Under the pieces are notes generated by a model. That model saw nothing but the letters and a program-made list of their open reading frames with translations, was not told the origin of the DNA and did no database searches. Below are positions 11,693 to 64,000 of a stretch of DNA of 64,000 bases, piece after piece. This DNA comes from Spirochaetia bacterium (GTDB taxonomy: Bacteria; Spirochaetota; Spirochaetia; WTKD01; G963693115): positions 704,001-768,000 of the forward strand of contig CBDDCA010000006.1 in NCBI GenBank assembly GCA_965226055.1. Direction: 5' to 3'. Position 1 is the stretch's first letter. The number at the start of each line of letters is the position of its first letter. The position numbers and the translations under genes are program-made.

Positions 11693-11748
11693 AAGGAGTG
11701 TAAGGATGATGAGCAATCATCATATAAATAAAAAATATGGAGGTCCAT

Positions 11749-14700
11749 ATGAACCAAAAAAATAATAAGAATCATGCAAGAGGCATAAAGAATAGATATA
11801 TCGTGTTAGGGGCGATACTACTGATGATGGTAGTGGGAAGTTGTGAGGAGCCTGAAAGTAGCAGTAGCTCACCGTCAGCACCACCAGTACCACCGCCACA
11901 GGCAGTACTGTCATGGGAAGAATTGTATAAGCAAGAAGAGAAGCTGGTAGTATTATTTTCTGATCCGCTTGCGTCTTATGAAGCAAGCAAGATAGTAATC
12001 AACAAGACAGTAAAAGGAGGGACAGCAAGTAAGCTGGCATTGACAAAGGACTATACGCTAAAGCTGGAAGGGAAAACGCTTGTGATAACATTCACAAAGA
12101 AAGTAGAGAAAGAGGAGATGTATGCAGTGCAGATACAAGCAGGAGGAGTAAAGAGTACCGCAGGCAAGACAAATGAGCGATCAGAGGATAAGCGAGTAAC
12201 GATAAACAAGGAGCCTGAGCTAGAGATAGGGCTATGGTATATAGATCCTACAGGAGGCAAGAAAATAATAATAACATTTAATGAAGAAGTAAGGATACTG
12301 GATGCGAGCAAGATAAAGGCGCAAAAGAAGGAAGCAGACAGCTATGCAGATATAGAGGTATCATCAGTAGCAGTAAAAGAAGCAGATAAGAGTCAGTTAG
12401 AAATAGAATTAAAAGAAGGAGCAAAAGCCCAAGAGAAATACAAGGTGATCATAGAGAAAGGAGGAATAAAAGGAGCAACAGAAGGAAATGCGACCAGATG
12501 GGAAACAGGAGAGATAGAGTATCAACAAAATCCATTACAGGAGCAGGCAGTATATATAGTAGGAAAAAAGATAACAGTAGTATTTGGGATAGCATTAAAA
12601 AGTATAGAAGCATCCAAGATAAAAGTGAAGAAAAAGCAAGGAGAAAACTATGAAGAGTTGACAGTGTCTGAGCTTCCCGATATAAACAAGAAGATAAATA
12701 AGGAGCAAAAGAAGCACTTAGAGTTAGAATTAGGACAGGCTCCCAAGCAAGGAGAGGTGTACCGCATAGCTTTTGAAGCAGGAGCGTTGACAGATATAAG
12801 CAATCAACAAAGTGGGCAGAGAGAACCGACCGATAAGGACATAGAGATAAACGGGGGCCCGGTACTAGATAGCAGCAAAGATCCGTATATAGTAGGCAAA
12901 GAGATAACAGTAGCGTTTGATAAAGAATTAGTACTGCTGGATACGAGCAAGATAAAGGTACTGAAGCAAGCATCAGGCGGATCAGTCTTTAGTGAATTAG
13001 ATGCGACAGCCTTGCCCGAAGCAAATAAAGTACTGAATGGGAGTGATAAGAAACTATTAGAGCTGACACTATCAGAAACAGAAACGATACAAACAGGAGA
13101 CAAGTATAGGATACAGCTGGAAGCAGGAGCAGTAAGAGATACCGATGAAGGAAATGCAGAGATTTCACCGACCGATAAGGACATAGAGATAGAGGAAAAG
13201 CCTGAGTTATCTCCAGAGGGTCCGTACATAGTAGGCAGAGAGATAACAGTGAGTTTTGCAGGAGCAGTAACGCTGCTGGATGCGAGTAAGGTAAAAGTAT
13301 TGAAGCAATCAGGAGGAGCATCTAATTTTACAGAGGTGTCGGTGAGTAGTGTAGTATTGGACAGCAATGATACAACAAAGCTAAAAGTGACAATACCAGC
13401 GACACAGACAGGAGAAACCTATAGGATAAAGATAGAACCAGGAGCAGTAGAGAATGGGAACAAGAAAGCCAATGAAGAGCTAGCGCCAACGGATAAGGAC
13501 ATAATGATAACAGGAGGAGCAGTATTAGATACAAGCAAAGATCCGTATATAGTAGGCAAAGAGATACGAGTGTTCTTTACAAAAGCTATAGCATTCCTCG
13601 ATAAGAGCAAGGTAAAAGTATTGAAGCAAGCAGTAGGAGGATCAACCTTTAGTGAATTAAATACGACAGCCTTACCCGAAGCAAATAAAGTGATCAATAG
13701 CAGTGATAAGAAGCAACTAGAGCTGACACTTGTAGGAACAGTACAGACAGGAGAAACGTATAGGATAAAGCTAGAAGCAGGAGCAGTACTCTCTGAGAAT
13801 GAAGGAAATGCAGAGATTTCACCGACCGATAAGGACATAGTGATAACAGGAGGCCCGGTACTAGATAACAGTAAAGATCCATACATAGTGGGCAAAGAGA
13901 TAACAGTAATGTTTGATAGGAATGTGGAGATACTGGATAAAAGCAAGATACAAGTACTAAAGCAAGGAGCAGGAGAGTCAAAATTTAGTGCATTAAATAC
14001 CACTGCGTTGCCCGAAGCAAATAAAGTACTCAATGGAAGCAATAAGAAACAACTCGAACTGACGCTTGTAGGAACAATACAGACAGGAGACAAGTATAGG
14101 ATAAAGCTAGAAGCAGGAGCAATACGAGATACCGATGAAGGAAATACAGAGCTCGCACCAGAAAATAAGGACATAGAGATAACAGGAGGCCCGGTGCTAG
14201 ATAACAATCAAGCCCCGTACATAGTAGGCAAAGAGATAACAGTGACATTTGATAAAGCTATAGCATTCCTCGATAAGAGCAAGATAAAAGTATTGAAGCA
14301 AGCAGTAGGAGGGTCAACCTTTAGTGAATTGAATACGACAGACTTGCCCGAAGCAAATAAAGTACTCAATGGGAGTAATAAGAAACTACTCGAACTAACG
14401 CTTGTAGGAACAGTACGGACAGGAGAAACCTATAGGATAAAGCTGGAAGCAGGAGCCATACTCTCTGAGAATGAAGGAAATGCAGAGATTTCACCGACCG
14501 ATAAAGACATAGTGATAAAGGAGAATCCTGTGTTAAATAATAGTATCCCCCCGTATATAGTAGGAACTGTGATACGAGTAATCTTTGATAGAGTGGTAAG
14601 CATAGAGGACAAGAGCAAAATAAAAGTGCAGAAGAAAGCATCAGGAGGCACATTTACAGAGCTGGTAGTATCAGGAAGTAATAAAGAACTGGACACAGAT

Positions 14701-17700
14701 AAAAAGATACTAAAAATAACAATACCGTCTCCGACAACAGGAGACACATATAGGCTAGAATTGGAAGCGGGGGCTGTGAGTGCGAATGGGAGAGACAATG
14801 AGGCAATAGCACCGACCGATAAGGACATAGTAATAACAGGAGGCCCGGTACTAGATAGCAGCAAAGATCCGTATATAGTAGGCAAAGAGATACGAGTGTT
14901 CTTTACAAAAGCAATAACATTTTTGGATAAGAGCAAGGTAAAAGTATTGAAGCAAGCAGTAGGAGGCTCAACCTTTAGTGAATTGAATGCGACAGTATTG
15001 CCCGCAGCAAATAAAGTAATCAATAGCAGTGATAATAAGCAGTTAGAACTGACGCTTGTAGGAACAGTACGGACAGGAGAAACCTATAGGATAAAGCTGG
15101 AAGCAGGAGCAGTAAAAGATGCAAGTGAAGGAAACGCAGAGATCTCACCAACAGGGAAGGATATAGTGATAAGCGGAGGCCCGGTACTTGATGGAAATGT
15201 TACCTTAGCAAGTAAAGTGATAACAGTAACATTTGATAGAACAATAACAATAGTATCAAAGAAGAAAATAAAAGTACTCAAGAAAACAACAAGCGAAGTG
15301 AGCTATAAAGAAGTGAGTACCAGTGAATTACCGGAAGCCAATAAACAAAGGGCAGGAGGGAATGACAAGCAGCTGAAGTTGACGTTGGTAGGAACATTGA
15401 GAAACAACGATAGCTACAGAATAGCACTAGAGGCAGGAGCAGTGAAAGACACAGATGAAGGGAATGCAGAGCTAGCACCAACAGATAAAGATGTAGTGGT
15501 AACAGGAGGAGCGATGCTTGATGGAAGCAAAGCAATGTCAGTAGTAGGAAAAGAGTTTACCATACCGCTGGATAAAGTAGTGAGCATAGAGGATAAGAGT
15601 AAGATAAAACTGAAGAAGCAAGCAGTAGGAGGAAGTGCATTTATTGACTTAACTGACAGTGAATTACCAGCAGCGAACAAAGGATTAGTATCATCAAACA
15701 ATGCGTTGAAGCTAACTGTAGCACAGACCCCCACGACAGGAGAAACCTATAGGATAGAGCTAGAAGCAGGAGCAGTAAAAGCAGCAGGAGATATACTCAA
15801 TGATACGATAGCGCCAACGAACAAGGATATAGTGATAAGTGGCGGTCCAGTACTGGATAGCAGTACAGATCCATATATAGTGGGAGCAGTGATACTAGTG
15901 AGTTTTGATAGCACTATAACAATCATAGATAAAGATAAGATAAAAGTGCAGAAGAAAGCATCAGGAGGCACATTTACAGAACTGGATGATACAGCAGTAC
16001 CAGATAATAGTATAGTAAAAGATACGAACAATGCGAAAGTGCTAAAAATAACAGTACCAACCCCAAAGAAGAATGACACCTATCGCTTAGAGTTTGAAGC
16101 AGGAGCGGTATCCTCTGGAAATGAAGGAAATAGAACAATAGCACCGACCGACAAGGATATAGTGATAGCAGGAGGAGCAGTATTAGATACAAGTAAAGAT
16201 CCGTATCGAGTAGGAACAGTGATAATAGTGAGCTTTGATAAGAATATAGCATTTTTAGATAAGAGCAAGATAAAAGTGAAGAAGCAGGCAGTAGGAGGAA
16301 GTTCGTATACCGATGTGGCAGTATCGGGGAGTAATATAGCAAAAGATACGAATGATGAGAAAGTGCTAAAAATAACAGTGCCAACCCCACAGAATAAAGA
16401 GAAGTATCGCTTAGCATTTGAAGAGGGAGCCTTGCTCTCTGGGAAAGAAGGAAATGAGGCAATAACCCCGACAAATAAGGACATAACGATAGGAGATGGC
16501 CCTGTGTTGAGTGCAGGAACGAAGCTGAACGTAGCAAAGAAAAGGGTATTAGAAGTATCGTTTCCTGTAGAGGTAGAGCTCATAGCCCCAGATAGTATAG
16601 TGGTATCTAAAAAAGCAAAAGGAGGAAGTTTTAGTCCCTTAGGAACTTCCGATAGGACGATAGCAGTGGATAGTACCGATGAAAAGAAGATACAGATTAC
16701 GCTCACTAAAAGTGACTTAGCACAAGACGAGACATGGAAAGCAGAGTTTCCCGCAGGAACAGTATTAGGAGTAGCAAGTAGAAATGGAAATAGTACTAGT
16801 CAAATAACAGGAGAATATACGATAGATGATATATATGATTTGTACACATGGAAGCAACTGGTTACCAGCAATGAGGATCCTAAAAAGACGGGTATTTGGA
16901 ATAAACGTGAAAGACTTGGTTCTGTAGTGTTTAAGAATAGAATATGGGCATTGGGAGGAAACGATAGTAATGATAATTTTCTTAATGATGTATGGAGCAG
17001 TGCTGATGGGCAGGTATGGAAAGAACATACCACGAGTAACGAAGATAAAACAAGTACTATTTGGAGTAAACGTCAAGAGCTTGGTTCTGTAGTGTTTAAG
17101 AATAGGATATGGGTTATGGGAGGGATTGAGGATCCTTATATTGCACTTAATGATGTGTGGAGCAGTGCTGATGGAGAAGTATGGAAAAAGCACACCACGA
17201 GTAACAAAAATGGAACAAATACTATTTGGAGGGGACGTGCCCTATCAGCTGTGGTGGTATTTCAGAATAAGATCTGGATTATAGGAGGATACGAATCCCC
17301 TGATAGTCATCTCACTGATATATGGAGCAGTGCTGATGGGAATGTATGGGAAGAGCATAGTATAAGCGATTCTACCGGTGATAATACTAAATTATGGGGA
17401 CAAGCTGGTTATCCTTATAGTATTGTAGAGTTTAAGAGTAAGATATGGGTTATAGGAGGATACGACAAGAGCAAGACAGATTTTAGTAATAATAACATAT
17501 GGAGCAGTACTGATGGGATTGTATGGAAAAGGCATACTACAAGTTCAATTTGGGCTGATGGTCGTCACAATTTTACCTCTTTGGTGCTTGATAATAAGAT
17601 GTGGGTTGTTGGAGGTTCTACTGTTAAGGATAATGGTAATGATATATGGAGTAGTGCTGATGGAGAAGTGTGGAAAGTACATAGTGCTACCATAAACCAT

Positions 17701-17811
17701 AAAGAAATTCACAACTATGCTGCTGAGGTATTCAAGAACAAAATCTTTTTGCTAGGGGGATTTATAGAGAATTTTAAAGAAATCGATGATGTTTGGACAT
17801 TTCCCAACTAA
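11749..17811 (+). CDS. Giant surface lipoprotein with ~15 tandem Ig-like repeats and a C-terminal six-bladed Kelch-like beta-propeller
   Basis: GGAGGT RBS before ATG 11749; lipobox MVVGSC; Ser/Pro linker; ~110-aa repeats (GGPVLD..DPYIVGKEI.V.FD...YRI.LEAGAV...PTDKDI); six repeats of VFKNRIW..GG...NDVWSSADG..W. Confidence 0.85.
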   Translation: MNQKNNKNHARGIKNRYIVLGAILLMMVVGSCEEPESSSSSPSAPPVPPPQAVLSWEELYKQEEKLVVLFSDPLASYEASKIVINKTVKGGTASKLALTKDYTLKLEGKTLVITFTKKVEKEEMYAVQIQAGGVKSTAGKTNERSEDKRVTINKEPELEIGLWYIDPTGGKKIIITFNEEVRILDASKIKAQKKEADSYADIEVSSVAVKEADKSQLEIELKEGAKAQEKYKVIIEKGGIKGATEGNATRWETGEIEYQQNPLQEQAVYIVGKKITVVFGIALKSIEASKIKVKKKQGENYEELTVSELPDINKKINKEQKKHLELELGQAPKQGEVYRIAFEAGALTDISNQQSGQREPTDKDIEINGGPVLDSSKDPYIVGKEITVAFDKELVLLDTSKIKVLKQASGGSVFSELDATALPEANKVLNGSDKKLLELTLSETETIQTGDKYRIQLEAGAVRDTDEGNAEISPTDKDIEIEEKPELSPEGPYIVGREITVSFAGAVTLLDASKVKVLKQSGGASNFTEVSVSSVVLDSNDTTKLKVTIPATQTGETYRIKIEPGAVENGNKKANEELAPTDKDIMITGGAVLDTSKDPYIVGKEIRVFFTKAIAFLDKSKVKVLKQAVGGSTFSELNTTALPEANKVINSSDKKQLELTLVGTVQTGETYRIKLEAGAVLSENEGNAEISPTDKDIVITGGPVLDNSKDPYIVGKEITVMFDRNVEILDKSKIQVLKQGAGESKFSALNTTALPEANKVLNGSNKKQLELTLVGTIQTGDKYRIKLEAGAIRDTDEGNTELAPENKDIEITGGPVLDNNQAPYIVGKEITVTFDKAIAFLDKSKIKVLKQAVGGSTFSELNTTDLPEANKVLNGSNKKLLELTLVGTVRTGETYRIKLEAGAILSENEGNAEISPTDKDIVIKENPVLNNSIPPYIVGTVIRVIFDRVVSIEDKSKIKVQKKASGGTFTELVVSGSNKELDTDKKILKITIPSPTTGDTYRLELEAGAVSANGRDNEAIAPTDKDIVITGGPVLDSSKDPYIVGKEIRVFFTKAITFLDKSKVKVLKQAVGGSTFSELNATVLPAANKVINSSDNKQLELTLVGTVRTGETYRIKLEAGAVKDASEGNAEISPTGKDIVISGGPVLDGNVTLASKVITVTFDRTITIVSKKKIKVLKKTTSEVSYKEVSTSELPEANKQRAGGNDKQLKLTLVGTLRNNDSYRIALEAGAVKDTDEGNAELAPTDKDVVVTGGAMLDGSKAMSVVGKEFTIPLDKVVSIEDKSKIKLKKQAVGGSAFIDLTDSELPAANKGLVSSNNALKLTVAQTPTTGETYRIELEAGAVKAAGDILNDTIAPTNKDIVISGGPVLDSSTDPYIVGAVILVSFDSTITIIDKDKIKVQKKASGGTFTELDDTAVPDNSIVKDTNNAKVLKITVPTPKKNDTYRLEFEAGAVSSGNEGNRTIAPTDKDIVIAGGAVLDTSKDPYRVGTVIIVSFDKNIAFLDKSKIKVKKQAVGGSSYTDVAVSGSNIAKDTNDEKVLKITVPTPQNKEKYRLAFEEGALLSGKEGNEAITPTNKDITIGDGPVLSAGTKLNVAKKRVLEVSFPVEVELIAPDSIVVSKKAKGGSFSPLGTSDRTIAVDSTDEKKIQITLTKSDLAQDETWKAEFPAGTVLGVASRNGNSTSQITGEYTIDDIYDLYTWKQLVTSNEDPKKTGIWNKRERLGSVVFKNRIWALGGNDSNDNFLNDVWSSADGQVWKEHTTSNEDKTSTIWSKRQELGSVVFKNRIWVMGGIEDPYIALNDVWSSADGEVWKKHTTSNKNGTNTIWRGRALSAVVVFQNKIWIIGGYESPDSHLTDIWSSADGNVWEEHSISDSTGDNTKLWGQAGYPYSIVEFKSKIWVIGGYDKSKTDFSNNNIWSSTDGIVWKRHTTSSIWADGRHNFTSLVLDNKMWVVGGSTVKDNGNDIWSSADGEVWKVHSATINHKEIHNYAAEVFKNKIFLLGGFIENFKEIDDVWTFPN
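12853..16500 (+). repeat. Tandem ~330-bp intragenic repeats (Ig-like units), several with long near-identical DNA stretches
   Basis: Recurrent blocks such as ccgaccgataaggacata and gatccgtatatagtaggcaaagagata. Confidence 0.9.
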
Positions 17812-55047: not shown

Positions 55048-55425
55048 GTGAGGATAAAAATGTATTTTACAAAAAATCATGAATGGGTGTTAATAGAGGG
55101 AACTGTTGCTACAGTAGGGATTACTTCTTATGCACAAGATAATTTAGGGGATGTTGTTTTTGTTGAATTGCCATCTATTGATAGTACAGTATCACAATCT
55201 GATGCAGTAGCAGTAGTAGAATCAGCAAAGTCTGTATCTGATGTGTATGCCCCTCTTAGTGGCACCATAGTTGAGATAAATGATACGGTGATTGAGGAGA
55301 CTTCTATTATAAATACAAGTCCCCAAAAGGATGGATGGCTCTTTAAGATTAACATTGATCAGTTGAATCAGCTCGATGAAATGATGAATGAAAGTGAATA
55401 TAATGAATATATACAGACATTATGA
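55048..55425 (+). CDS. gcvH: Glycine cleavage system H protein
   Basis: HEWV, VGITSYAQDNLGDVVFV, VESAKSVSD (lipoyl-Lys). Confidence 0.95.
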   Translation: MRIKMYFTKNHEWVLIEGTVATVGITSYAQDNLGDVVFVELPSIDSTVSQSDAVAVVESAKSVSDVYAPLSGTIVEINDTVIEETSIINTSPQKDGWLFKINIDQLNQLDEMMNESEYNEYIQTL

Positions 55426-55472
55426 GAATATGGCGATGAGTATTCTTGTTGTTTGTTTCTTTGTAAATAACT

Positions 55473-58397
55473 ATGTCAGATAAAAAAAATACTTTTGTAG
55501 ATGTAGCAGAGGAAATATCTCATTCTTTTGCAGAAAGGCATATAGGGGTACACGGTGATGATCGTAAGCACATGCTTGCGGCATTAGGGGTAGATTCTAT
55601 TGAACAGTTAATAGATCAAGTGCTTCCTGATAGCTTAAAAGATGCTACGCAGTTTGATTTTCCAAAAGCTGTATCAGAATATGCAGCACTTCAAAAATTA
55701 AAAAATATAGCTCAGAAAAATGTTGTAGTGAAATCTCTTATTGGACAGGGATATTATGATACTATTACGCCTGCTCCGATACTCCGAAATATTTTAGAGA
55801 ATCCTGGATGGTATACAGCGTATACTTCATATCAGTCTGAGATATCACAAGGTCGGCTTGAAGCACTTTTTAATTTTCAAACAATGATAAGTGATTTCAC
55901 AGGGTTATCGGTTGCAAATGCTTCATTGTTAGATGAATCTACTGCTCTTGCAGAAGCGGTGTTACTTGCATGCAGATATTCTAAAAAAGAGCGGGTTGTT
56001 GTTATAGAAGGTTTGCATGAACAGAATATGCAATTACTCTATACTCGTTTAGATAAACTGAACATACCTATTGAAATTGTATCGTTACAGGAATATGAAC
56101 AAGATACATTTCATCTAGCAGCCGATACGGCTGCTGTAGTAATGCAGTTGCCTACTACTGAGGGATTGGTATATGACATTTCTTTGTGTGTACAAAAAGC
56201 AAAGAAGCAAGAGGTTCTTTGCATAGCATCAATTGATCCATTATTGATGACTATTCTTGGTACTCCTGCACAGTGGGGAATTGATATTGTAGTGGGTTCA
56301 ACACAGCGTTTTGGGGTACCAATGGGCTATGGGGGACCACATGCTGCATTTTTAGCATGTGATGAAAAGTTCAGACGTTTGGTTCCTGGACGGCTTGTAG
56401 GACAATCGAAAGATGCTAAGGGACGTGTTGCGTATAGGCTTGCATTGCAAACAAGAGAGCAGCATATTCGTAGAGAGAAAGCAACATCAAATATATGTAC
56501 CTCCCAAGTGTTACTTGCTGTTATGGCTTCCATGTATGCAGTATATCATGGAGGAAAAGGGCTGCAACATATTACAAAGTATATTCATACATTAGCATGG
56601 TTGTTTTGGAATGTAGCAAAAAGACAAAAAAATAGTAAGGTGCTTTATGATACTTTTTTTGATACTATAACATGGTCTGTTCAAGAGAGTGCCCTTGCAC
56701 AGACACAACAGAAAGCTGCGTTACAGGCAGGGTATAACATACGATGTATAAATAAGACGACACTTTCTGTCTCATTTGATGAAGTATGTACTCTTGAGGA
56801 TGTAAAAGTTCTTTCACAAAATATATTTGATCTTTCATCGGAAGATATGAATATATTTGATATACTTTTACAAAAAAATCTTGGATCGTCAGTACCTTTG
56901 TCATTGCCAGCTCATATGTATCGAAATACTTCTTTGTTAAGTCAACCTATATTTAATGCATATCATACTGAAACAGAACTTATGCGCTATATGCGCTTTC
57001 TTATGGATAAAGATTTGGCTCTTGATAGATCTATGATACCGCTTGGTTCGTGTACTATGAAGCTGAATGCTGTATCTGAGCTTATGCCAGTTTCATGGCA
57101 AGAATTTTCTCATATGCACCCGTATGTGCCGTTAGATCAAACTGTTGGGTATCAAAATCTTATTACTCAAACAGAAAGTATGCTATGTAGCATCACTGGA
57201 TTTGATGCAGTGTCATTGCAACCAAATGCAGGAAGTCAAGGGGAATACGCAGGATTGCTTGCAATTAGTGCATATCATAGGAGTAATGGTGATATGCAAC
57301 GAAATATTTGTTTGATACCATCTTCGGCTCATGGCACTAACCCTGCAAGTGCAATTATGGTGGGAATGAAAGTAGTGGTAGTGCAGTGTGATGAGCAAGG
57401 GAATATTGATATTCAAGATTTACAAGCGAAAGCAGAGAAATATTCTGAGGTATTAGCGGCTTTGATGGTGACATATCCTTCCACCCATGGAGTATATGAA
57501 GAAAATATAAAGCATATATGTGATATTGTGCATACACATGGTGGACAAATATATATTGATGGGGCTAATCTTAATGCGCTTGTTGGCATAGTAACACTGA
57601 CTTCTTTAGGGGCAGATGCTGCACATATGAATCTTCATAAAACATTTGCTATTCCGCATGGAGGAGGAGGTCCAGGCATAGGACCTGTGGGAGTAAAGAA
57701 GCATCTTGTTCCTTTTTTGCCTGCTAATATGCTTGTACAAAAAAAGCCATATTCTGTAGGACCAGTGTCAGCTGCTCCGTGGGGATCAGCTTCAATACTT
57801 CCTATATCATGGATGTATATGACAATGATGGGAAAGGAGGGGCTACAGGAAGCAACAAAGGTTGCAGTATTAAATGCTAATTATGTGGTAAAAAGGCTGT
57901 CTAAGTATTATACTATTTTGTATACAGGAAAACACGGGAGAGTTGCACATGAGTGTATACTTGATACACGGCCTTTTAAGGAGAGTGCAAATGTTATGTC
58001 TACTGATATTGCAAAAAGGCTTATAGATTATGGGTTTCATGCTCCTACTATGTCCTGGCCTGTACAGAATACGCTTATGATAGAGCCTACAGAAAGTGAA
58101 TCGAAAGCTGAGCTGGATAGATTTTGTGATGCAATGATTAGTATTCGTGAAGAAATTCGAAACATAGAAAATGCTGTGTGGGCAAGAGATGATAATCCCC
58201 TTGTATGTGCTCCTCATTGTGCAGAAGATATATGCAGTGATAGCTGGGATCACAGTTATACAAGGCAAGAAGCAGCGTACCCGATACCTTCGCTCTACAA
58301 TAATAAGTATTGGCCTCCGCTCTCACGAGTAGACGATGCTTTTGGAGATAAAAATCTTATTTGCTCATGCCCTCCTATTGATGAGTACGAAGCATAA
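55473..58397 (+). CDS. gcvP: Glycine dehydrogenase (decarboxylating), single-chain P protein
   Basis: YQSEISQGRLEAL, REQHIRREKATSNICT, PLGSCTMK, HMNLHKTF. Confidence 0.97.
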   Translation: MSDKKNTFVDVAEEISHSFAERHIGVHGDDRKHMLAALGVDSIEQLIDQVLPDSLKDATQFDFPKAVSEYAALQKLKNIAQKNVVVKSLIGQGYYDTITPAPILRNILENPGWYTAYTSYQSEISQGRLEALFNFQTMISDFTGLSVANASLLDESTALAEAVLLACRYSKKERVVVIEGLHEQNMQLLYTRLDKLNIPIEIVSLQEYEQDTFHLAADTAAVVMQLPTTEGLVYDISLCVQKAKKQEVLCIASIDPLLMTILGTPAQWGIDIVVGSTQRFGVPMGYGGPHAAFLACDEKFRRLVPGRLVGQSKDAKGRVAYRLALQTREQHIRREKATSNICTSQVLLAVMASMYAVYHGGKGLQHITKYIHTLAWLFWNVAKRQKNSKVLYDTFFDTITWSVQESALAQTQQKAALQAGYNIRCINKTTLSVSFDEVCTLEDVKVLSQNIFDLSSEDMNIFDILLQKNLGSSVPLSLPAHMYRNTSLLSQPIFNAYHTETELMRYMRFLMDKDLALDRSMIPLGSCTMKLNAVSELMPVSWQEFSHMHPYVPLDQTVGYQNLITQTESMLCSITGFDAVSLQPNAGSQGEYAGLLAISAYHRSNGDMQRNICLIPSSAHGTNPASAIMVGMKVVVVQCDEQGNIDIQDLQAKAEKYSEVLAALMVTYPSTHGVYEENIKHICDIVHTHGGQIYIDGANLNALVGIVTLTSLGADAAHMNLHKTFAIPHGGGGPGIGPVGVKKHLVPFLPANMLVQKKPYSVGPVSAAPWGSASILPISWMYMTMMGKEGLQEATKVAVLNANYVVKRLSKYYTILYTGKHGRVAHECILDTRPFKESANVMSTDIAKRLIDYGFHAPTMSWPVQNTLMIEPTESESKAELDRFCDAMISIREEIRNIENAVWARDDNPLVCAPHCAEDICSDSWDHSYTRQEAAYPIPSLYNNKYWPPLSRVDDAFGDKNLICSCPPIDEYEA

Positions 58398-58533: not shown

Positions 58534-58941
58534 TTACTCAAGCGGTGATAATTTTGTATCTTTATCTTTGTAAAACTCTTTTACTTTCTCATTTACCCAA
58601 TCACTGTGTGTCCAGTCATGTAATTTTTTGAGTGTGTACCCTACTACTGCCAAATCGTCAAGCCATCCAACAAAAGGTATTGCATCTGGTATTAAATCAA
58701 AAGGAAATACTACATACCCTAACGCTGCAATGCAAAAAATCTTGCTTGTACTGTCAATATCAGGATGTTTCATTACAAAGTATAGTCGTACAAACGGCTC
58801 ACTTACTTTTCTTGGGAGTTTTTTTACTAATTTTTCAAACTTCCCTTCATCATAGTATTTTTCATATTTTTCGTGATTTTTCTCAAAATGATCTGTATGT
58901 TCTTTTTTCTTCTCTTCTGTGTATTCTTCTTCTTTATCCAT
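58534..58941 (-). CDS. YkvA/DUF1232 family protein
   Basis: AALGYVVFPFDLIPDAIPFVGWLDD. Confidence 0.88.
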   Translation of the reverse strand: MDKEEEYTEEKKKEHTDHFEKNHEKYEKYYDEGKFEKLVKKLPRKVSEPFVRLYFVMKHPDIDSTSKIFCIAALGYVVFPFDLIPDAIPFVGWLDDLAVVGYTLKKLHDWTHSDWVNEKVKEFYKDKDTKLSPLE

Positions 58942-58947
58942 AATAGT

Positions 58948-58977
58948 ATTATACTGGATGAGCATATGTGTTGTCAA
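58948..58977 (-). promoter_or_regulatory. Sigma70 promoter of the DUF1232 gene (leaderless)
   Basis: TTGACA, 18 nt, TATAAT, 6 nt, ATG on the minus strand. Confidence 0.65.
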
Positions 58978-59011
58978 TGTTTTTTTACTTTTTGAATGAT
59001 ATTTTTGACAA

Positions 59012-59739
59012 GGGGCTGACCCATTTAATGAAAATTAGACTAACCCAGCCTCCTGTACCCAATTATACAACACTTTATACATGTTTGTGATTGGTCTATA
59101 ATTAAACCGAAATTCACATTCTTTGAGATACAGCTCAAAATGGTTTTTCGGTATTCCATTGTATCTTCTCAGATGCCTCTTTGATTGATTCCAAAAATTC
59201 TCTATTCCATTTATATGATTTTGCTTGTGTGCAAATTCCTTTGCATGATTTATGCGATAGTGTTGAAAGTCTGATACATCCAATATATTATAACTCGGAG
59301 AGGTATCTGTATAGATAATACTCTGAGGAGCTACTTTTTTCTTTATGATACTATAGAGTGTGCAAGTTGTTGTATTACTTACTGTTAGTGCATGCACCAT
59401 AGCTATTTCTTTTATATAATCCAAACACTATTGTTTTTCCTCCTGCTCCTCTGCCTCGCTTTCCTTTTTGTTTTCCTCCAAAATAACTTTCATCTATTTC
59501 TATTTCCCCTGAAAGTGCTATTTCATATTCACTGAGCTTTTCTCTTATAATACACCGTAATTTATGATACCACGATATACTTGTTTTTTTATTTATTCCT
59601 AGAAGCAATGCTGCACTTCTTGCTGGTGTTCCTGCTACATAATGTTCTATTATTCTTTTTACTATGATATGTGATAATCTTGTTTTTCTCATGCCTATTC
59701 TTTTAGAATAGCCTTTTTTCTCTTATCTGGGTCAGCCCC
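59012..59739 (-). mobile_element. IS1595-family (IS1016-like) insertion sequence, 728 bp
   Basis: Terminal IRs GGGGCTGACCCA / TGGGTCAGCCCC; 8-bp target duplication TTTGACAA at 59004-59011 and 59740-59747. Confidence 0.92.
59035..59692 (-). pseudogene. IS1595-family transposase, frameshifted near 59400
   Basis: EIDESYFGG..KGKRGRGAGGK in one frame; IYTD, HINGIENFW, YLKECEFRFN in another. Confidence 0.85.
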
Positions 59740-59740
59740 T

Positions 59741-59768
59741 TTGACAATATGTGGAAAGTCTGTATAAT
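59741..59768 (+). promoter_or_regulatory. Consensus sigma70 promoter at the head of the tandem array
   Basis: TTGACA, 16-nt spacer, TATAAT. Confidence 0.65.
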
Positions 59769-59841
59769 TAAATAGGGAGTACTGTTTACTAATTTGCTTA
59801 AATGTAATCAGCTTCTTGAATTAAATACAGAGGAGGGTTTT

Positions 59842-60390
59842 ATGAGTAAACCTAAAAAAGAGATGTTATTGTTGGCTGTGCCTCCTAATTGTGGTAAAAC
59901 ATTCACGATTAATTTGCTATATAATAAATTGAAGCAATTTAATGAAAAAGAACAAGATACTTCTAAATGGAAGTATGATAAACTAGCTCCAAAATCTAAA
60001 GAAGAGTTTCAAAACATAGAGGATAAAAAATATGAAAATCAAGATGAAGAGGGAGATATTCAAGAAACAGTAAAAATCAATGGCATAACTATTGGTTTTG
60101 CTAGTGCAAGTGATGATCCTGATCTGATTGATGCGAATATGGAGTTTTTTGAAGAAAAGAAATGTAATATTTGTATTACAGCTTGTTCTTGTGATGGAAT
60201 ATTAGGTAAAAGACAAGGAAAATATCCAACAGAGAGCATACAAAAAATATTAAAATTTGCACAAAAACATGAATACTGTATCTCACCATTTGATTTCATG
60301 GGTATGGATAAAGAGCATGATAATGATTATTGTAACAACGAAAAAGCAAGAATGATGTTTGATAGATTAAAATATCTTTTATCCGTGTAA
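59842..60390 (+). CDS. Small P-loop-like protein, array copy 1
   Basis: GAGGAGG RBS; LLLAVPPNCGKT; INGITIGFAS; CNICITACSC. Confidence 0.8.
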   Translation: MSKPKKEMLLLAVPPNCGKTFTINLLYNKLKQFNEKEQDTSKWKYDKLAPKSKEEFQNIEDKKYENQDEEGDIQETVKINGITIGFASASDDPDLIDANMEFFEEKKCNICITACSCDGILGKRQGKYPTESIQKILKFAQKHEYCISPFDFMGMDKEHDNDYCNNEKARMMFDRLKYLLSV

Positions 60391-60584
60391 AGTCTAATCA
60401 GTATCCGAGAACAGTAAAGGAAAAATAAAAAACTCCATTTTTGCAAAAATTCTGCACTATATTCTTATATCTTTGATACGGTAACACGAGACAGTGAAAG
60501 TACAGTATAATTAAATAGGAAGTATTGCTTACTAATTTGCTTAAATGTAATCAGCTTCTTGAATTAAATACAGAGGAGGGTTTT

Positions 60585-61127
60585 ATGAGTAACCCTAAAA
60601 AAGAGATGTTATTGTTGGCAGCGCGTGATAGAAGTGGGAAAACATTCACGATTAATTTGCTATATCATAAATGTATGCAATTTAAACAAGATATGTCCAT
60701 ATCAGATTATGATAAACTAGCTCCAAAATCTAAAGAAGAGTTTCAAAAAATAAAGAATGCAGAGTATAAAAATCAAGATGAAGATGGAGATATTCAAGAA
60801 ACAGTAGAAATTAATGGCATAACTATTGGTTTTGCTAGTAAAGGTGATTATCCTAATGATATTAAAAAGAATATTAAGTTTTTTAAAGAAAATGGATGTG
60901 ATATTTGTATTACAGCTTGTTCTTGCCTTGGAATAATAGGTAAAGGACGAGGAAGGAAAAAAGAGATGATACAAAAAATATGGGATTTTAAGGAAAAACA
61001 TAAATACTGTATCTCACAATTTGATTTCACAGGTGTGGAATATCATGATGATGAGTATTGTTACGACACTAACAACGAAAAAGCAAGAATGATGTTTGAT
61101 AGATTAAAATATCTTTTATCCGTGTAA
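60585..61127 (+). CDS. Small P-loop-like protein, array copy 2
   Basis: GAGGAGG RBS; LLLAARDRSGKT matches [AG]x4GK[ST]. Confidence 0.8.
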   Translation: MSNPKKEMLLLAARDRSGKTFTINLLYHKCMQFKQDMSISDYDKLAPKSKEEFQKIKNAEYKNQDEDGDIQETVEINGITIGFASKGDYPNDIKKNIKFFKENGCDICITACSCLGIIGKGRGRKKEMIQKIWDFKEKHKYCISQFDFTGVEYHDDEYCYDTNNEKARMMFDRLKYLLSV

Positions 61128-61321
61128 AGTCTAATCAGTATCCGAGAACAGTAAAGGAAAAATAAAAAACTCCATTTTTGCAAAAATTCTGCACTATATT
61201 CTTATATCTTTGATACGGTAACACGAGACAGTGAAAGTACAGTATAATTAAATAGGAAGTATTGTTTGCTAATTTGCTTAACTGTAATCAGCTTCTTGAA
61301 TTAAATACAGAGGAGGGTTTT

Positions 61322-61867
61322 ATGAGTAAACCTAAAAAAGAGATGTTATTGTTGGCTGTGCCTTCTAATTGTGGTAAAACATTCACGATTAATTTGCTAT
61401 ATAATAAATTGAAGCAATTTAATGAAAAAGAACAAGATACTTCTAAATGGAAGTATGATAAACTAGCTCCAAAATCTAAAGAAGAGTTTCAAAAAATAAA
61501 GGATGCAGAGTATGAAAATCAAGATGACTGGGGAGATATTCAAGAAACAGTAACAATCAATGGCATAACTATTGGTTTTGCTAGTGCAAGTGATGAACCT
61601 TATCTGATTGATGCGAATATGAAGTTTTTTGAAGAAAAGAAATGTGATATTTGTATTACAGCTTGTTCTTGCCTTGGAATATTAGGTACAGGACGAGGAA
61701 AGAAAAAAGAAATGATACAAAAAATAAGGGATTTTAAGGAAAAACATAAATACTGTATCTCACAATTTGATTTCATGGGTATGGATAAAGAGCATGATTT
61801 TGACTACTCTAACAACGAAAAAGCAAGAATGATGTTTGATAGATTAAAATATCTTTTATCCGTGTAA
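61322..61867 (+). CDS. Small P-loop-like protein, array copy 3
   Basis: GAGGAGG RBS; LLLAVPSNCGKT. Confidence 0.8.
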   Translation: MSKPKKEMLLLAVPSNCGKTFTINLLYNKLKQFNEKEQDTSKWKYDKLAPKSKEEFQKIKDAEYENQDDWGDIQETVTINGITIGFASASDEPYLIDANMKFFEEKKCDICITACSCLGILGTGRGKKKEMIQKIRDFKEKHKYCISQFDFMGMDKEHDFDYSNNEKARMMFDRLKYLLSV

Positions 61868-62060
61868 AGTCTAATCAGTATCCGAGAACAGTAAAGGAAA
61901 AATAAAAAACTCCATTTTTGCAAAAATTCTGCACTATATTCTTATATCTTTGATACGGTAACACGAGACAGTGAAAGTACAGTATAATTAAATAGGAAGT
62001 ATTGTTTGCTAATTTGCTTAAATGTAGTCAGCTTCTTGGATTAAATACAAATGAGGTTTT

Positions 62061-62573
62061 ATGGATAAATCTAAAAAAGAGATGTTGGTATTGGCTATGC
62101 CTCCTAAACATGGTAAAACATTCACGATTAAATTGTTATATGATAAATTAGAGCGATTTAATAGATCTGAAAAAGATATTTCTAACTTGAACTATGATAA
62201 TCTAAAACCAGAATACGGATCGGAAGAATTTCAAGAAATAAAGTATAAAAAACATGGTCGAAACAAAGAGATTCTAGAAGCAATAAAAATCAATGGCATA
62301 ACTATTGGTTTTGCTAGTGTAAGTGATACCTGGTATGAGATTAGAGATAATATGAAGTTTTTTGAAGAAAAGAAATGTAATATTTGTATTACAGCTTGTT
62401 CTTGTATGGGATTACTAAGAGATGGAAATAAACAAAAAATAATATTAGATTTTGTAAAAAAGCATAGATACGGTATTTCGATATTTAATTTTAGAGGTGT
62501 AGATGATTACTATCGTAACAACGAAAGAGCGAGAATAATGTTCGATAGATTAAAGTATCTTTTATCTGTGTAA
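62061..62573 (+). CDS. Small P-loop-like protein, array copy 4 (most divergent)
   Basis: GAGG RBS; LVLAMPPKHGKT. Confidence 0.8.
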   Translation: MDKSKKEMLVLAMPPKHGKTFTIKLLYDKLERFNRSEKDISNLNYDNLKPEYGSEEFQEIKYKKHGRNKEILEAIKINGITIGFASVSDTWYEIRDNMKFFEEKKCNICITACSCMGLLRDGNKQKIILDFVKKHRYGISIFNFRGVDDYYRNNERARIMFDRLKYLLSV

Positions 62574-62764
62574 ATTTTGATGAGAAAGCCAAACAGTAGA
62601 GGAAAAATAAAAAGCTCCATTATTGCAAAAATTTTGCAGTATATTCTTATATCTTTGATACGGCAACAAGATGGTAAAATTACAGTATAATTAAATAAGG
62701 GAGTATTGTTTATTAATTTGCTTAAATGTAATCAGCTTCTTGAGTAAATATAAAGGAAAGTTTT

Positions 62765-63304
62765 ATGAGTAAATCTAAAAAAGAGATATTATTATTGGCT
62801 GTGCCTGCTAACAGTGGTAAAACATTCACGATTAATTTGTTATATAATAAATGGATGAAATTTAAACAAGATATGTCCATATCAGATTATGATAAACTAG
62901 AACCAAAATCTAAAGAAGCGTTTCAAAAAATAAAGAATGCAGAGTATAAAAATCAAGATAAAGATGGAGATATTCAAGAAACAGTAGAAATTAATGGCAT
63001 AACTATTGGTTTTGCTAGTAAAGGTGATGAACCTGATGCTATTCGAAAGAATATTAAATTTTTTAAAGAAAATAAATGTGGTATTTGTATTACAGCTTGT
63101 TCTTGTGATGGAATATTAGATAAAAGACAAGGGAAAGATACAAAAGAGCGTGTACAAAAAATATTAGATTTTGAAGAAAAACACAAATACTGTATCTCAA
63201 CATTTGATTTCATGAGTGTGGATGAAGAGCATGACAATGACTACTGTAACAATGAAAAAGCAAGAATGATGTTTGATAGATTAAAGTATCTTTTGTCCGT
63301 GTAA
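62765..63304 (+). CDS. Small P-loop-like protein, array copy 5
   Basis: AAGGA RBS; LLLAVPANSGKT. Confidence 0.8.
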   Translation: MSKSKKEILLLAVPANSGKTFTINLLYNKWMKFKQDMSISDYDKLEPKSKEAFQKIKNAEYKNQDKDGDIQETVEINGITIGFASKGDEPDAIRKNIKFFKENKCGICITACSCDGILDKRQGKDTKERVQKILDFEEKHKYCISTFDFMSVDEEHDNDYCNNEKARMMFDRLKYLLSV

Positions 63305-63435
63305 ATTTTGATAAGAAAGCCAAACAGTAAGAGGAAAAATAAAAAATTCCATAGTTTAAATATATTTGCACTATAGTATTGTATGCTTATATAGACAACG
63401 AGATAGTAAAACTCCAAAAAAATCCTTATTTTTGC

Positions 63436-63465
63436 TTGACATAGCATAAACAAACACAATATAAT
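63436..63465 (+). promoter_or_regulatory. Sigma70 promoter of rplM-rpsI
   Basis: TTGACA, 18-nt spacer, TATAAT. Confidence 0.65.
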
Positions 63466-63534
63466 ATATTCCATAGTGGAGACTTATGTTTAATGATATA
63501 GGTACACTAAATAGTAGATACAAGGTACAAGGAT

Positions 63535-63978
63535 ATGCTAGACCAAAAAACTATATTTATTCCCCCAAGCAAAGTAGTGCGTAAGTGGTATCTCATTGAT
63601 GCGAAAGATAAAGTATTGGGAAAAGTAGCAGTGGAAATTGCTCGATTAGTACGTGGAAAACACAAAGCTGAGTTTACTCCTCACCAAGAGATTGGTGATT
63701 ATGTGGTAGTTATCAATGCAGACAAGGTAAAGCTCACTGGTAACAAAGAAACACAGAAAATGTATCACCGACATAGTGGGTATCCCGGTTCTCTGAAATC
63801 AGAGAATTATAAAAGATTGAACGATAGAAAGCCTGGCTATCCCTTAGAGCTAGCAATTAAACGCATGTTGCCAAAAAATAAACTTGGCAATAAACTGTTT
63901 ACTAATGTTAAGGTATATGCAGGAGAGCCTAATCCTCTCCCTCATATAGCACAGAAACCAGAAAAATACGAGGTATAA
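63535..63978 (+). CDS. rplM: 50S ribosomal protein L13
   Basis: RKWYLIDA, GKHKAEFTPH, GDYVVVINA, HSGYPG, MLPKNKLG. Confidence 0.97.
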   Translation: MLDQKTIFIPPSKVVRKWYLIDAKDKVLGKVAVEIARLVRGKHKAEFTPHQEIGDYVVVINADKVKLTGNKETQKMYHRHSGYPGSLKSENYKRLNDRKPGYPLELAIKRMLPKNKLGNKLFTNVKVYAGEPNPLPHIAQKPEKYEV

Positions 63979-63979
63979 T

Positions 63980-64000
63980 ATGGAACAGAGTTCTTTTGGT
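63980..64000 (+). CDS. rpsI: Probable 30S ribosomal protein S9, 5' fragment
   Basis: ATG 1 nt after the rplM stop (MEQSSFG...); called from conserved rplM-rpsI synteny only. Confidence 0.55.

Follow-up and report, generated by a model that had tools for sequence, protein, structure and literature searches.

Does a tandem gene array in which two types of N-terminal half and two types of C-terminal half occur in all four combinations represent a programmed generator of diversity, or can it arise by ordinary exchange between paralogs? The window (the whole stretch of DNA analysed here, 64,000 nt) carries such an array, consisting of five direct tandem paralogs (c1 to c5; 59842-63304, all on the + strand and with ATG starts) with a repeat period of ~740 bp (Table 1). 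Most probably the pattern reflects gene conversion of an ordinary kind between paralogs of an orphan P-loop protein gene whose expansion is specific to the genus, with a single recombinant copy, c3, completing the set of combinations.

Table 1 Coordinates of the array genes, c2-like segments of c3 and flanking features in the window.
Feature	Position	Strand	Remarks
Degenerate IS1595-family element	59010-59741	-	5′ bound of array; 33-nt terminal inverted repeats 59010-59042 / 59709-59741
Perfect sigma-70-type consensus upstream of c1	59741-59768	+	TTGACA, 16 nt, TATAAT; 12/12 matches; consensus match only
c1 (alpha-x)	59842-60390	+	182 aa, predicted P-loop NTPase paralog
Spacer c1-c2	60391-60584	+	Conserved TATAAT and RBS GAGGAGGG
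c2 (beta-y)	60585-61127	+	180 aa; r1 orthologue; donor type for c3 tracts
c3 (alpha-y)	61322-61867	+	181 aa; recombinant copy (segment matches, incongruent trees)
Minor c2-like patch in c3, ~16 nt	61495-61510	+	6 c2-like substitution sites, 1 c1-like
Major c2-like tract in c3, ~119 nt	61646-61764	+	22 c2-like sites and shared 3-nt gap, 2 c1-like, 3 unique
c4	62061-62573	+	170 aa; most divergent paralog; r2 orthologue
c5 (beta-x)	62765-63304	+	179 aa; r3 orthologue
23-nt block ATTTGTATTACAGCTTGTTCTTG, starts	60169 (c1), 60903 (c2), 61649 (c3), 62382 (c4), 63083 (c5)		
rplM	63535-63978	+	Conserved 3′ anchor of array in window and sister-species genome; translation and DNA match to sister locus

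All five copies are full ORFs, each starting at an ATG of its own and preceded by an RBS and a conserved TATAAT -10 box, and neither silent cassettes nor a single expression site were found among them. The first 137 nt are identical in the spacers c1-c2, c2-c3 (61128-61321) and c3-c4 (61868-62060). Promoter-like sites are fewer in the region overall than in shuffled sequence (17 vs 25). The transposase of the IS1595-family element at the 5′ boundary is split over two ORFs (59035-59424 and 59375-59692; Pfam DDE_Tnp_IS1595, 3.9e-20 and 1e-07). The three upstream ORFs scanned with Pfam correspond to IS1595 transposase fragments and a DUF1232 protein, rplM lies downstream, and no recombinase is present among these flanking ORFs. 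All copies are direct repeats, the best inter-copy inverted repeat being only 30 nt at 73%. At the 3′ end, 63388-64000 matches a sister-species relative with 96.7% identity (613 nt), and the sister-species genome carries three syntenic copies (r1, r2 and r3) upstream of rplM.

The two-by-two arrangement had been described in a first-pass annotation, and all of its elements were recovered here. N-half alpha (KLKQFNEKEQDTSKWKYDK ... ASDxPxLIDANM) was found in c1 and c3 and beta (FKQDMSISDYDK ... KGDxPxxIxKNIKFFKEN) in c2 and c5; C-half x (DGILxKRQGK) is present in c1 and c5 and y (LGIxGxGRGxKKEMIQKI) in c2 and c3, and all four combinations of N-half and C-half are found in the array. The switch between halves falls at the shared 23-nt block, which occurs exactly once per copy, and a second switch follows FDF, where MGMDKEHD is found in c1 and c3. 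Of the 45 sites that are two-by-two informative among c1, c2, c3 and c5, 30 back the split c1c3|c2c5 (28 located 5′ of the block, the other two at alignment positions 465 and 471), 13 back c1c5|c2c3, all within alignment positions 353-448, and two back the third split. Only 5 switches occur along the gene, a number as low being reached in 0/20000 permutations of site order (run test). The PHI test (own permutation-based implementation), a type of check that the annotation had proposed, indicated clustering of sites far beyond chance for the five copies (58 informative sites; observed 0.282 vs permutation mean 0.425, sd 0.018; 0/10000). The x module is a weak group, not a supported clade: c1 and c5 share just 85% DNA identity in the x stretch and the group rests mostly on non-synonymous sites. 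It appears as c1+c5+r3 in the best C-part tree (65/78), and as a true clade it was unsupported in the tract tree, though not rejected (p-AU 0.31).

Comparison of c3 with c1 and c2 revealed a mosaic. From 61322 to 61461 c3 is c1-like at 22 substitution sites and c2-like at none, and a 9-nt indel is shared; 61513-61641 has 20 c1-like vs one c2-like; the minor c2-like patch lying between these segments could alternatively be a c1-specific cluster of changes. The relation is reversed at 61643-61773 (2 c1-like vs 22 c2-like substitutions and a shared 3-nt gap), where the major tract is bounded by c1-like sites at 61641 and 61776 and has its left end at the conserved block (61649-61671). After this tract c3 is c1-like again over 61776-61811, with six c1-like and no c2-like substitutions in 61775-61816 together with 12 c1-like gap columns (9-nt and 3-nt gap states). 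Since a donor-type tract thus has recipient type on both sides, the mosaic carries the signature of gene conversion. A further 15 c3 sites, absent from both c1 and c2, are spread over both kinds of segment, which makes c3 a copy in its own right that has aged, rather than a c1/c2 join.

It is unlikely that c3 is instead a hybrid gene whose c1-type N part was joined to a c2-type C part in one step, by unequal crossover or deletion. Unequal crossing-over is indeed favoured where tandem direct repeats have near-identical tails and spacers, and the order alpha-x, beta-y, alpha-y could, by reasoning only, follow duplication of a c1-c2 pair and a fusion deletion, but because c3 is of c1 type again 3′ of the tract (six vs no substitutions and the shared gap states) a single crossover is insufficient and at least one further exchange is needed.

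Separate trees per part, also proposed in the annotation, are incongruent. In the N-part tree c1+c3 has support of 76/75 and forcing c2+c3+r1 costs 57.2 lnL (p-AU 5.4e-12), while in the tract tree c2+c3+r1 has support of 96/99 and forcing c1+c3 costs 19.9 lnL (p-AU 0.0012); the c4/r2 clade is supported at 100/100. When c3 is left out, the C part does not reject (p-AU 0.185-0.186) the c2+r1+c5+r3 clade found in the N part (98/99), and PHI on c1, c2, c5, r1 and r3 gives 3406/10000. Because one tree then fits both halves, three ordinary paralogs and one recombinant are enough to give all four combinations. PHI signal persists in other sets without c3 (72/10000 for c1, c2, c4 and c5; 128/5000 for seven sequences), so c3 is not the sole exchange; there were probably older, poorly resolved exchanges too, e.g. 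one involving the 5′ ends of c4 and c5, and a second old exchange may lie behind beta-x or alpha-x. The earlier suggestion of recombination or gene conversion at the constant block therefore holds for c3, on the tree comparisons, PHI and the run test, and was not demonstrable for the other copies.

Along the whole gene, the pairing c2r1|c5r3 is found at 32/37 sites, and since full-length orthologues pair in this way the combinations in c2 and c5 are stable: beta-y (c2) and beta-x (c5) are old paralogs that predate the split from the sister species. The pair r1-r2 has its best collinear counterpart in the c3-c4 block (87.4% over 1441 nt), and c3 may be either a duplicate of c1 or the copy at the ancestral position of r1. 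At alignment positions 180-270 c2 and c5 are 99% identical, vs 94% for c2 and r1. Copy number differs, with five genes here vs three in the sister species. In a second assembly, a protein search with a 93-aa limit found on a 25,557-nt contig only proteins that cluster with c1, c4 or c5, and protein P0002 from this assembly is 98% identical to c1; absence of the c2 and c3 types could be due to repeat collapse or to fragments below 93 aa. Contigs from two sequencing runs with other organism labels (X5 and X6) lie on 59741-60360 and from 61819 to the end, continuing into unlike sequence before 59741, with none over 60503-61671 (c2, c3), a gap that is not bridged by any contig and so provides no evidence for strains without c2 and c3. 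This coverage pattern agrees with the c1, c4 and c5-only proteins of the second assembly.

On the gene-conversion reading, the exchange would have taken place within the five-copy tandem expansion, and c3 would be a c1-type gene that received short tracts from c2, the next copy upstream, presumably by homologous, RecA-type recombination between direct repeats, i.e. non-reciprocally. The genome carries an intact recA (445.9 bits), and hence machinery for general homologous recombination, and RecA may have acted in the c3 event. The main tract would measure 119-134 nt, with its left end in the 23-nt block common to all copies, and would stop before the MGMDKEHD codons, c3 being of c1 type from there. 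The remaining genes (c1, c2, c4 and c5) would be older, ordinary paralogs, with copy number shifting via recombination between near-identical gene tails and spacers.

The choice of breakpoint may be explained by the protein. In an AlphaFold2 model (mean pLDDT 90.3, pTM 0.88) the constant block is predicted to encode core β-strand 4 of a P-loop fold (ICITAC, strand 110-115); it would be identical in all copies because the motif of this strand is conserved throughout the wider family, and would in consequence provide perfect homology for recombination beside fast-evolving loops. The product is predicted to be a stand-alone P-loop NTPase fold of ~180 aa, presumably with NTPase activity, in agreement with its earlier description as an apparently cytoplasmic protein. 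Top matches in a structure search were all P-loop NTPases/kinases or designed P-loop folds (Z 8.6-7.2, middling range), the best being 2i3b (Z 8.6, rmsd 3.0, 112 residues aligned), with APS kinases at Z 8.4-7.3; Foldseek against PDB gave no E-value ≤0.001. Walker A residues G18-K19-T20 are invariant in the five copies (G and K at least 90% conserved in 71 sequences); at the first Gly position of GxxxxGKT, V, A or M is found instead. D91, invariant in the 71-sequence alignment and following strand 82-87, is a putative Walker B acidic residue. The match to THEP1/human cancer-related NTPase (2i3b, 1ye8) and APS kinase (4rfv, 2yvu) is at the level of fold (Z 8.6-8.2, rmsd 3.0-3.8, 111-121 residues). 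Like other minimal P-loop NTPases/kinases, the array proteins have a Walker A GKT and a conserved Asp after strand 3, but they differ from THEP1 and APS kinase in identity (10-15%), in the replaced Walker A Gly and in their own, lineage-specific insertions (~25 aa and 6-10 aa). Binding of an Fe-S cluster by CxxCxxxCxC was considered and rejected, as the cysteines lie in a buried β-strand of the model and, across the family, C108 alone reaches 90% conservation.

Combinatorial shuffling at the constant blocks, reminiscent of known systems, had been suggested in the annotation; a programmed, ongoing form of it, with these blocks as dedicated crossover sites, is very improbable. In Borrelia vlsE/vls and Treponema tprK, one expressed surface-antigen gene and promoter-less silent donors generate high-frequency variation within a population, while in hsdS shufflons of type I restriction-modification systems target recognition domains (TRDs) are swapped by site-specific inversion, a process that depends on inverted copies and, as a rule, on a tyrosine recombinase encoded next to them. 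The array shares with vls/tprK the bacterial class (the sister record is labelled Spirochaetia), segmental conversion between related sequences and constant regions flanking variable ones, and with hsdS two variable modules either side of a conserved central block. The presence of all four combinations, a main breakpoint coinciding with an invariant block, fast-evolving variable regions (paralog dN/dS up to 1.6) and assemblies differing in copy number all speak for such a system. Unlike vls/tprK, however, the array consists of five complete, separately startable genes for predicted cytoplasmic P-loop proteins with combinations stable across species, and the modelled N-terminus, strand 1 and P-loop of a globular α/β NTPase fold, does not resemble a surface-exposed antigen. 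Unlike hsdS, its copies are direct, without meaningful inverted repeats or a recombinase among the scanned flanking ORFs, and family searches (Pfam, NCBIfam, PADLOC/PHROGs) found no hsdS similarity in its proteins, the predicted fold not being that of a specificity subunit either. A single recombinant accounts for the pattern, and the combinations in c2 and c5 have been kept since before the species split. Contigs of four runs contain no joints inside the array, although contigs drop rare variants, making this a weak point.

Ordinary exchange has known parallels. Interlocus (ectopic) gene conversion and concerted evolution occur among bacterial paralogues, as in rRNA operons, tuf genes and M. 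tuberculosis multigene families; three reports on the subject are PMC8022953, PMC6053082 and PMC13061034. As in such conversion, c3 has a short, non-reciprocal tract from a neighbour bounded by recipient type, the breakpoint falls within perfectly identical sequence and paralogs are locally closer than orthologues. Unlike homogenising conversion, the c3 tract made a new combination, in a divergent, uncharacterised family.

An assembly artefact, in which c1-like and c2-like reads were wrongly joined to give c3, is likewise very improbable. The array is repetitive, the junction lies in sequence common to c2 and c3, and among the contig pieces listed none, independent ones included, bridges the alpha-to-y junction of c3 (these are k-mer contigs, and the nearest diagnostic sites are ~37 nt apart). 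A c1/c2 chimera would, however, match its parents exactly, whereas the 15 sites unique to c3 lie to either side of the junction, and the implied ‘other halves’ are absent from the 2.25-Mb assembly, which has only five copies. Contigs from runs X1 and X3 (two samples, one study) lie on 29/30 and 30/30 bins of 59000-63999, with one listed difference within the array, although X1 may be the source sample and is then not fully independent; 39/51 contig pieces in X1 and 30/42 in X3 are at least 99% alike, and 11 pieces in each only 90-95%.

Paralog dN/dS is 0.5-1.6, which fits relaxed constraint and would also fit selection for diversity. Pairwise values >1 (c1-c2, 1.39; c1-c3 N-half, 3.08, from 14 non-synonymous changes and one synonymous change) rest on small counts, and positive selection was set aside. 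Least credible of all is a scenario without any recombination, in which selection on fast-evolving loops produced the shared motifs by convergent or parallel substitution. High dN/dS in variable segments and the mostly non-synonymous sites of the x group might suggest it, but it is opposed by a contiguous, sharply bounded c2-like tract in c3 (22 substitution sites and an indel), by C-half dS (0.11 for c2-c3 vs 0.30 for c1-c3) and by PHI and the run test, which reject such clustered site patterns.

The protein family is unnamed and uncharacterised, and its expansion is genus-specific. Pfam, NCBIfam, PHROGs and PADLOC assigned none of the five proteins to a family, giving sub-threshold generic P-loop matches only (best PtuA, 3.6e-4, and GajA, 3.5e-4, over the Walker A region); a PDB sequence search also gave generic P-loop matches only, and Pfam found nothing over cut-off in 28 distant homologues. 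A CNICITACRTxG motif is common to the array proteins and these homologues, which form a sparse family with a patchy distribution (7/301 Bacteroidia genomes); in the ESM Atlas the nearest clusters consist of hypothetical proteins without names, from Bacteroidota more often than from any other phylum. No relatives were found in metagenome contigs scanned with the alignment or in viral contigs scanned with a narrower one, tblastn gave no match to plasmids or phages, and an exact 27-nt pattern had no matches in a collection scan. Three of the seven homologue loci examined adjoin defence-type genes (UvrD-like helicase and GmrSD, HerA-like, AAA_5).

In the model, the variable segments follow strands 1, 3, 4 and 5 directly, the nucleotide-/substrate-binding edge in P-loop folds. 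It is conceivable, though doubtful, that the array is a selected ‘specificity-swap’ family in which recombination at the core strand re-assorts loops for new partner or substrate specificity, perhaps with a role in defence or conflict. One conversion event is enough to produce a striking two-by-two module pattern in a tandem family, and in this array the pattern gives no indication of a programmed diversity generator, which corrects an over-reading. What c3 offers is a clean, well-bounded natural conversion tract starting at a functionally constrained motif, in an array whose content and copy number turn over between close genomes, and it draws attention to a sparse, unnamed, minimal P-loop family that is expanded and insertion-modified in this spirochaete lineage.

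The array consists of five tandem ORFs (c1 to c5; period ~740 bp) encoding a small P-loop protein, and holds all five copies of this gene found genome-wide (2.25 Mb, 6 contigs). GAGGAGGG lies ~5 nt ahead of the ATG in c1-c3, a conserved GTATAATTAAATAGG box is present in every spacer, and c1, c2 and c3 are identical in their final 48 coding nt and in the initial 137 nt of the spacers 3′ of them. A perfect TTGACA-16-TATAAT consensus is found upstream of c1, its first base being the final base of the insertion sequence (IS) inverted repeat, whereas c2-c5 keep TATAAT with poor -35 boxes. Window-matched contigs from two public sequencing runs (X5 and X6) diverge, reading upstream from c1, into unrelated sequence just before 59741, so the IS1595-family insertion may be strain-specific. 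Genes of the glycine cleavage system lie just upstream of the array region, and elsewhere in the window a long ORF falls in a stretch of markedly anomalous composition (GC 0.39-0.41, AT skew up to 0.41, GC skew ~0.3).

Table. Features of the array, its surroundings and the segments of c3.
Feature	Position	Strand	Description
Five-copy array	59842-63304	+	paralogous ORFs
c1	59842-60390	+	paralogous ORF, ATG start
c2	60585-61127	+	paralogous ORF, ATG start
c3	61322-61867	+	paralogous ORF, ATG start
c4	62061-62573	+	paralogous ORF, ATG start
c5	62765-63304	+	paralogous ORF, ATG start
c3 segment	61322-61461		22 c1-like, 0 c2-like substitutions; shares c1's 9-nt indel state
c3 segment	61489-61511		1 c1-like, 6 c2-like substitutions; minor patch
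c3 segment	61513-61641		20 c1-like, 1 c2-like substitutions
c3 segment	61643-61773		2 c1-like, 22 c2-like substitutions; shares c2's 3-nt gap
c3 segment	61775-61816		6 c1-like, 0 c2-like substitutions; shares c1's 9-nt and 3-nt gap states
Conserved block of c3	61649-61671		left end of c2-type tract
Degenerate IS1595-family element	59010-59741		upstream array boundary; 33-nt terminal inverted repeats, transposase split into two overlapping ORFs
rplM			downstream array boundary
TTGACA-16-TATAAT	59741-59768		upstream of c1
gcvH, gcvP	55048-58397		gcvP single-chain, 974 aa
DUF1232 protein gene	58534-58977	-	
Long ORF	11737-17811		2024 aa

The first-pass annotation had described two N-half types (alpha, beta) and two C-half types (x, y) in all four combinations, crossing over at an invariant CITACSC block. 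This observation was confirmed: the peptide patterns are distributed exactly as stated (c1 alpha-x, c2 beta-y, c3 alpha-y, c5 beta-x), and the 23-nt block occurs once in each copy. The four copies other than c4 divide 2:2 at 45 informative sites, 30 of which split c1+c3 from c2+c5 (28 located 5′ of the block, plus alignment positions 465 and 471), while 13, all within alignment positions 353-448, split c1+c5 from c2+c3 and two follow the third split. The split switches only five times along the gene, a number as low as this arising in 0/20000 permutations, and the PHI test (own script, refined incompatibility, 100-nt window) gave 0/10000 for the five copies.

Site-by-site scoring of c3 against c1 and c2 (Table) identifies it as a c1-type gene carrying a c2-type tract of 119-134 nt, and a second small c2-type tract may also be present. 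In maximum-likelihood trees c3 groups with c1 in the N part (76/75), where forcing it into the group of c2 and r1 (first of three sister-species copies, r1-r3) is rejected (delta lnL 57.2, p-AU 5.4e-12), and with c2 and r1 in the tract (96/99), where a constrained c1+c3 grouping is rejected (delta lnL 19.9, p-AU 0.0012). An assembly chimera is argued against by 15 sites at which c3 matches neither c1 nor c2, found on both sides of the junction. Contigs from two further runs, X1 (possibly the source sample) and X3, cover the whole array, with 39/51 and 30/42 pieces, respectively, at least 99% alike and 11 in each 90-95% alike; k-mer contigs of this kind cannot join the sites in c3 that are diagnostic for alpha to those diagnostic for y, ~37 nt away.

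A sister-species genome (record title ‘MAG: Spirochaetia bacterium’; same genus by kinship assignment) has three copies at the corresponding position, immediately 5′ of rplM: r1 (beta-y), r2 (c4-like) and r3 (beta-x), i.e. types c2, c4 and c5, with no alpha type among the three. Synteny between the window and this genome is restricted to the rplM side of the array, and a 2616-aa repetitive, surface-protein-like ORF lies just upstream of the sister array (locus L006, 1126-8976). In the quartet c2, c5, r1 and r3, 32/37 informative sites, unclustered along the whole gene, split c2+r1 from c5+r3 (PHI 5523/10000); beta-y and beta-x are therefore older than the species split, with no detectable exchange since. 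With c3 removed, a c2+r1+c5+r3 clade has strong support in the N part (98/99) and is not rejected in the tract (p-AU 0.185) or the whole C part (p-AU 0.186). By contrast with this clade, c1, c5 and r3 form only a weak x group, in which c1 and c5 share just 85% identity over the x segment. The tract tree leaves x paraphyletic, and a tree of alignment positions 327-510 gives it 65/78. One recombinant and three ordinary paralogues are enough to explain ‘all four combinations’. Older, smaller exchanges probably also occurred, e.g. at the 5′ ends of c4 and c5, PHI without c3 being 72/10000 for c1, c2, c4 and c5 and 128/5000 for seven sequences. Identity of 99% between c2 and c5 at alignment positions 180-270 (c2-r1, 94%; c5-r3, 92%) gives signs of local homogenisation among copies. 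In the sister-species array (L006, 10730-11769), r2 and r3 look degenerate: r2 has HAKT for HGKT in Walker A and a changed, extended C-terminus reaching within 15 nt of r3, which lacks ~21 codons (FDF...NNEK) and has YVTACSC for CITACSC.

Copy number also varies. A second assembly in a protein collection has a 25,557-nt contig on which the c1, c4 and c5 clusters are represented and the c2 and c3 clusters are not. Copies could be deleted or duplicated via the identical tails and spacers (at least 188 nt).

The proteins match no curated family in Pfam, NCBIfam, PHROGs or PADLOC. Among 5.8 billion proteins, nine clusters matched at E ≤ 1e-3, namely the five types of the window, the three sister-species copies and a metagenomic protein at 37% identity. 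With an exhaustive profile search, 84 representatives were recovered at E ≤ 1e-3 (13 at E ≤ 1e-10); these relatives are ~135-160 aa long and share four motifs (KEIILL..P.N.GKT, IGFAS.GD, C.ICITACRT.G and N.EKARMMLDRL.YL); none of 28 scanned reached a Pfam cut-off. AlphaFold2 (71 sequences; pLDDT 90.3, pTM 0.88) predicts an alpha/beta fold with ICITAC as strand 110-115, and structure searching returned P-loop NTPases and kinases, including 2i3b (Z 8.6, rmsd 3.0, 112 aligned residues), APS kinases (Z 8.4-7.3) and designed P-loop folds, with Z values middling by the tool's own scale; Foldseek gave no match at ≤1e-3. In the predicted fold the ‘invariant block’ encodes a core strand that is also a conserved family motif; this accounts for copies that otherwise diverge sharing identical DNA here, and for the resolution of exchanges at this site. 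The subfamily found in the window differs from its relatives by a ~25-aa insertion after helix 1, a 6-10-aa insertion right after the motif, corresponding to the x/y segment, and CSC in place of CRT. The variable segments follow strands 1, 3, 4 and 5, which in P-loop folds is the nucleotide and substrate edge; secondary structure alone would place them there. The protein is fast-evolving (dN/dS 0.42-0.55 for orthologues, 0.5-1.6 for paralogues), with counts too small for a claim of positive selection.

Within the window's order the family is present in 2/9 genomes, both of one genus, and absent from the other seven. Single copies occur in 7/301 genomes of a Bacteroidia sample, and no relatives were found in phage, plasmid, viral-contig or JGI-metagenome collections. 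Neighbours of the distant homologues vary from locus to locus, with defence-type genes at 3/7 loci examined (HerA_C-like at L019, AAA_5 at L020, UvrD-like helicase and GmrSD_N at L022), which suggests, as a lead only, variable or defence islands around the Bacteroidia homologues.

The first-pass annotation had likened the locus to combinatorial shuffling of the hsdS or vls/tprK kind. Its inference of recombination holds for c3, the only copy demonstrably mosaic; the analogy with a programmed system is not supported. All copies are direct, complete and separately startable, the array contains no silent cassettes and no inter-copy inverted repeats of note, no recombinase was found among the flanking ORFs scanned, and the combinations are stable across species. 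With recA intact in the genome, general homologous recombination suffices, and gene conversion between bacterial paralogues has ample precedent (PMC8022953, PMC6053082, PMC13061034). The locus represents an ordinary mechanism at work in a P-loop family that has expanded in this lineage and is otherwise uncharacterised.
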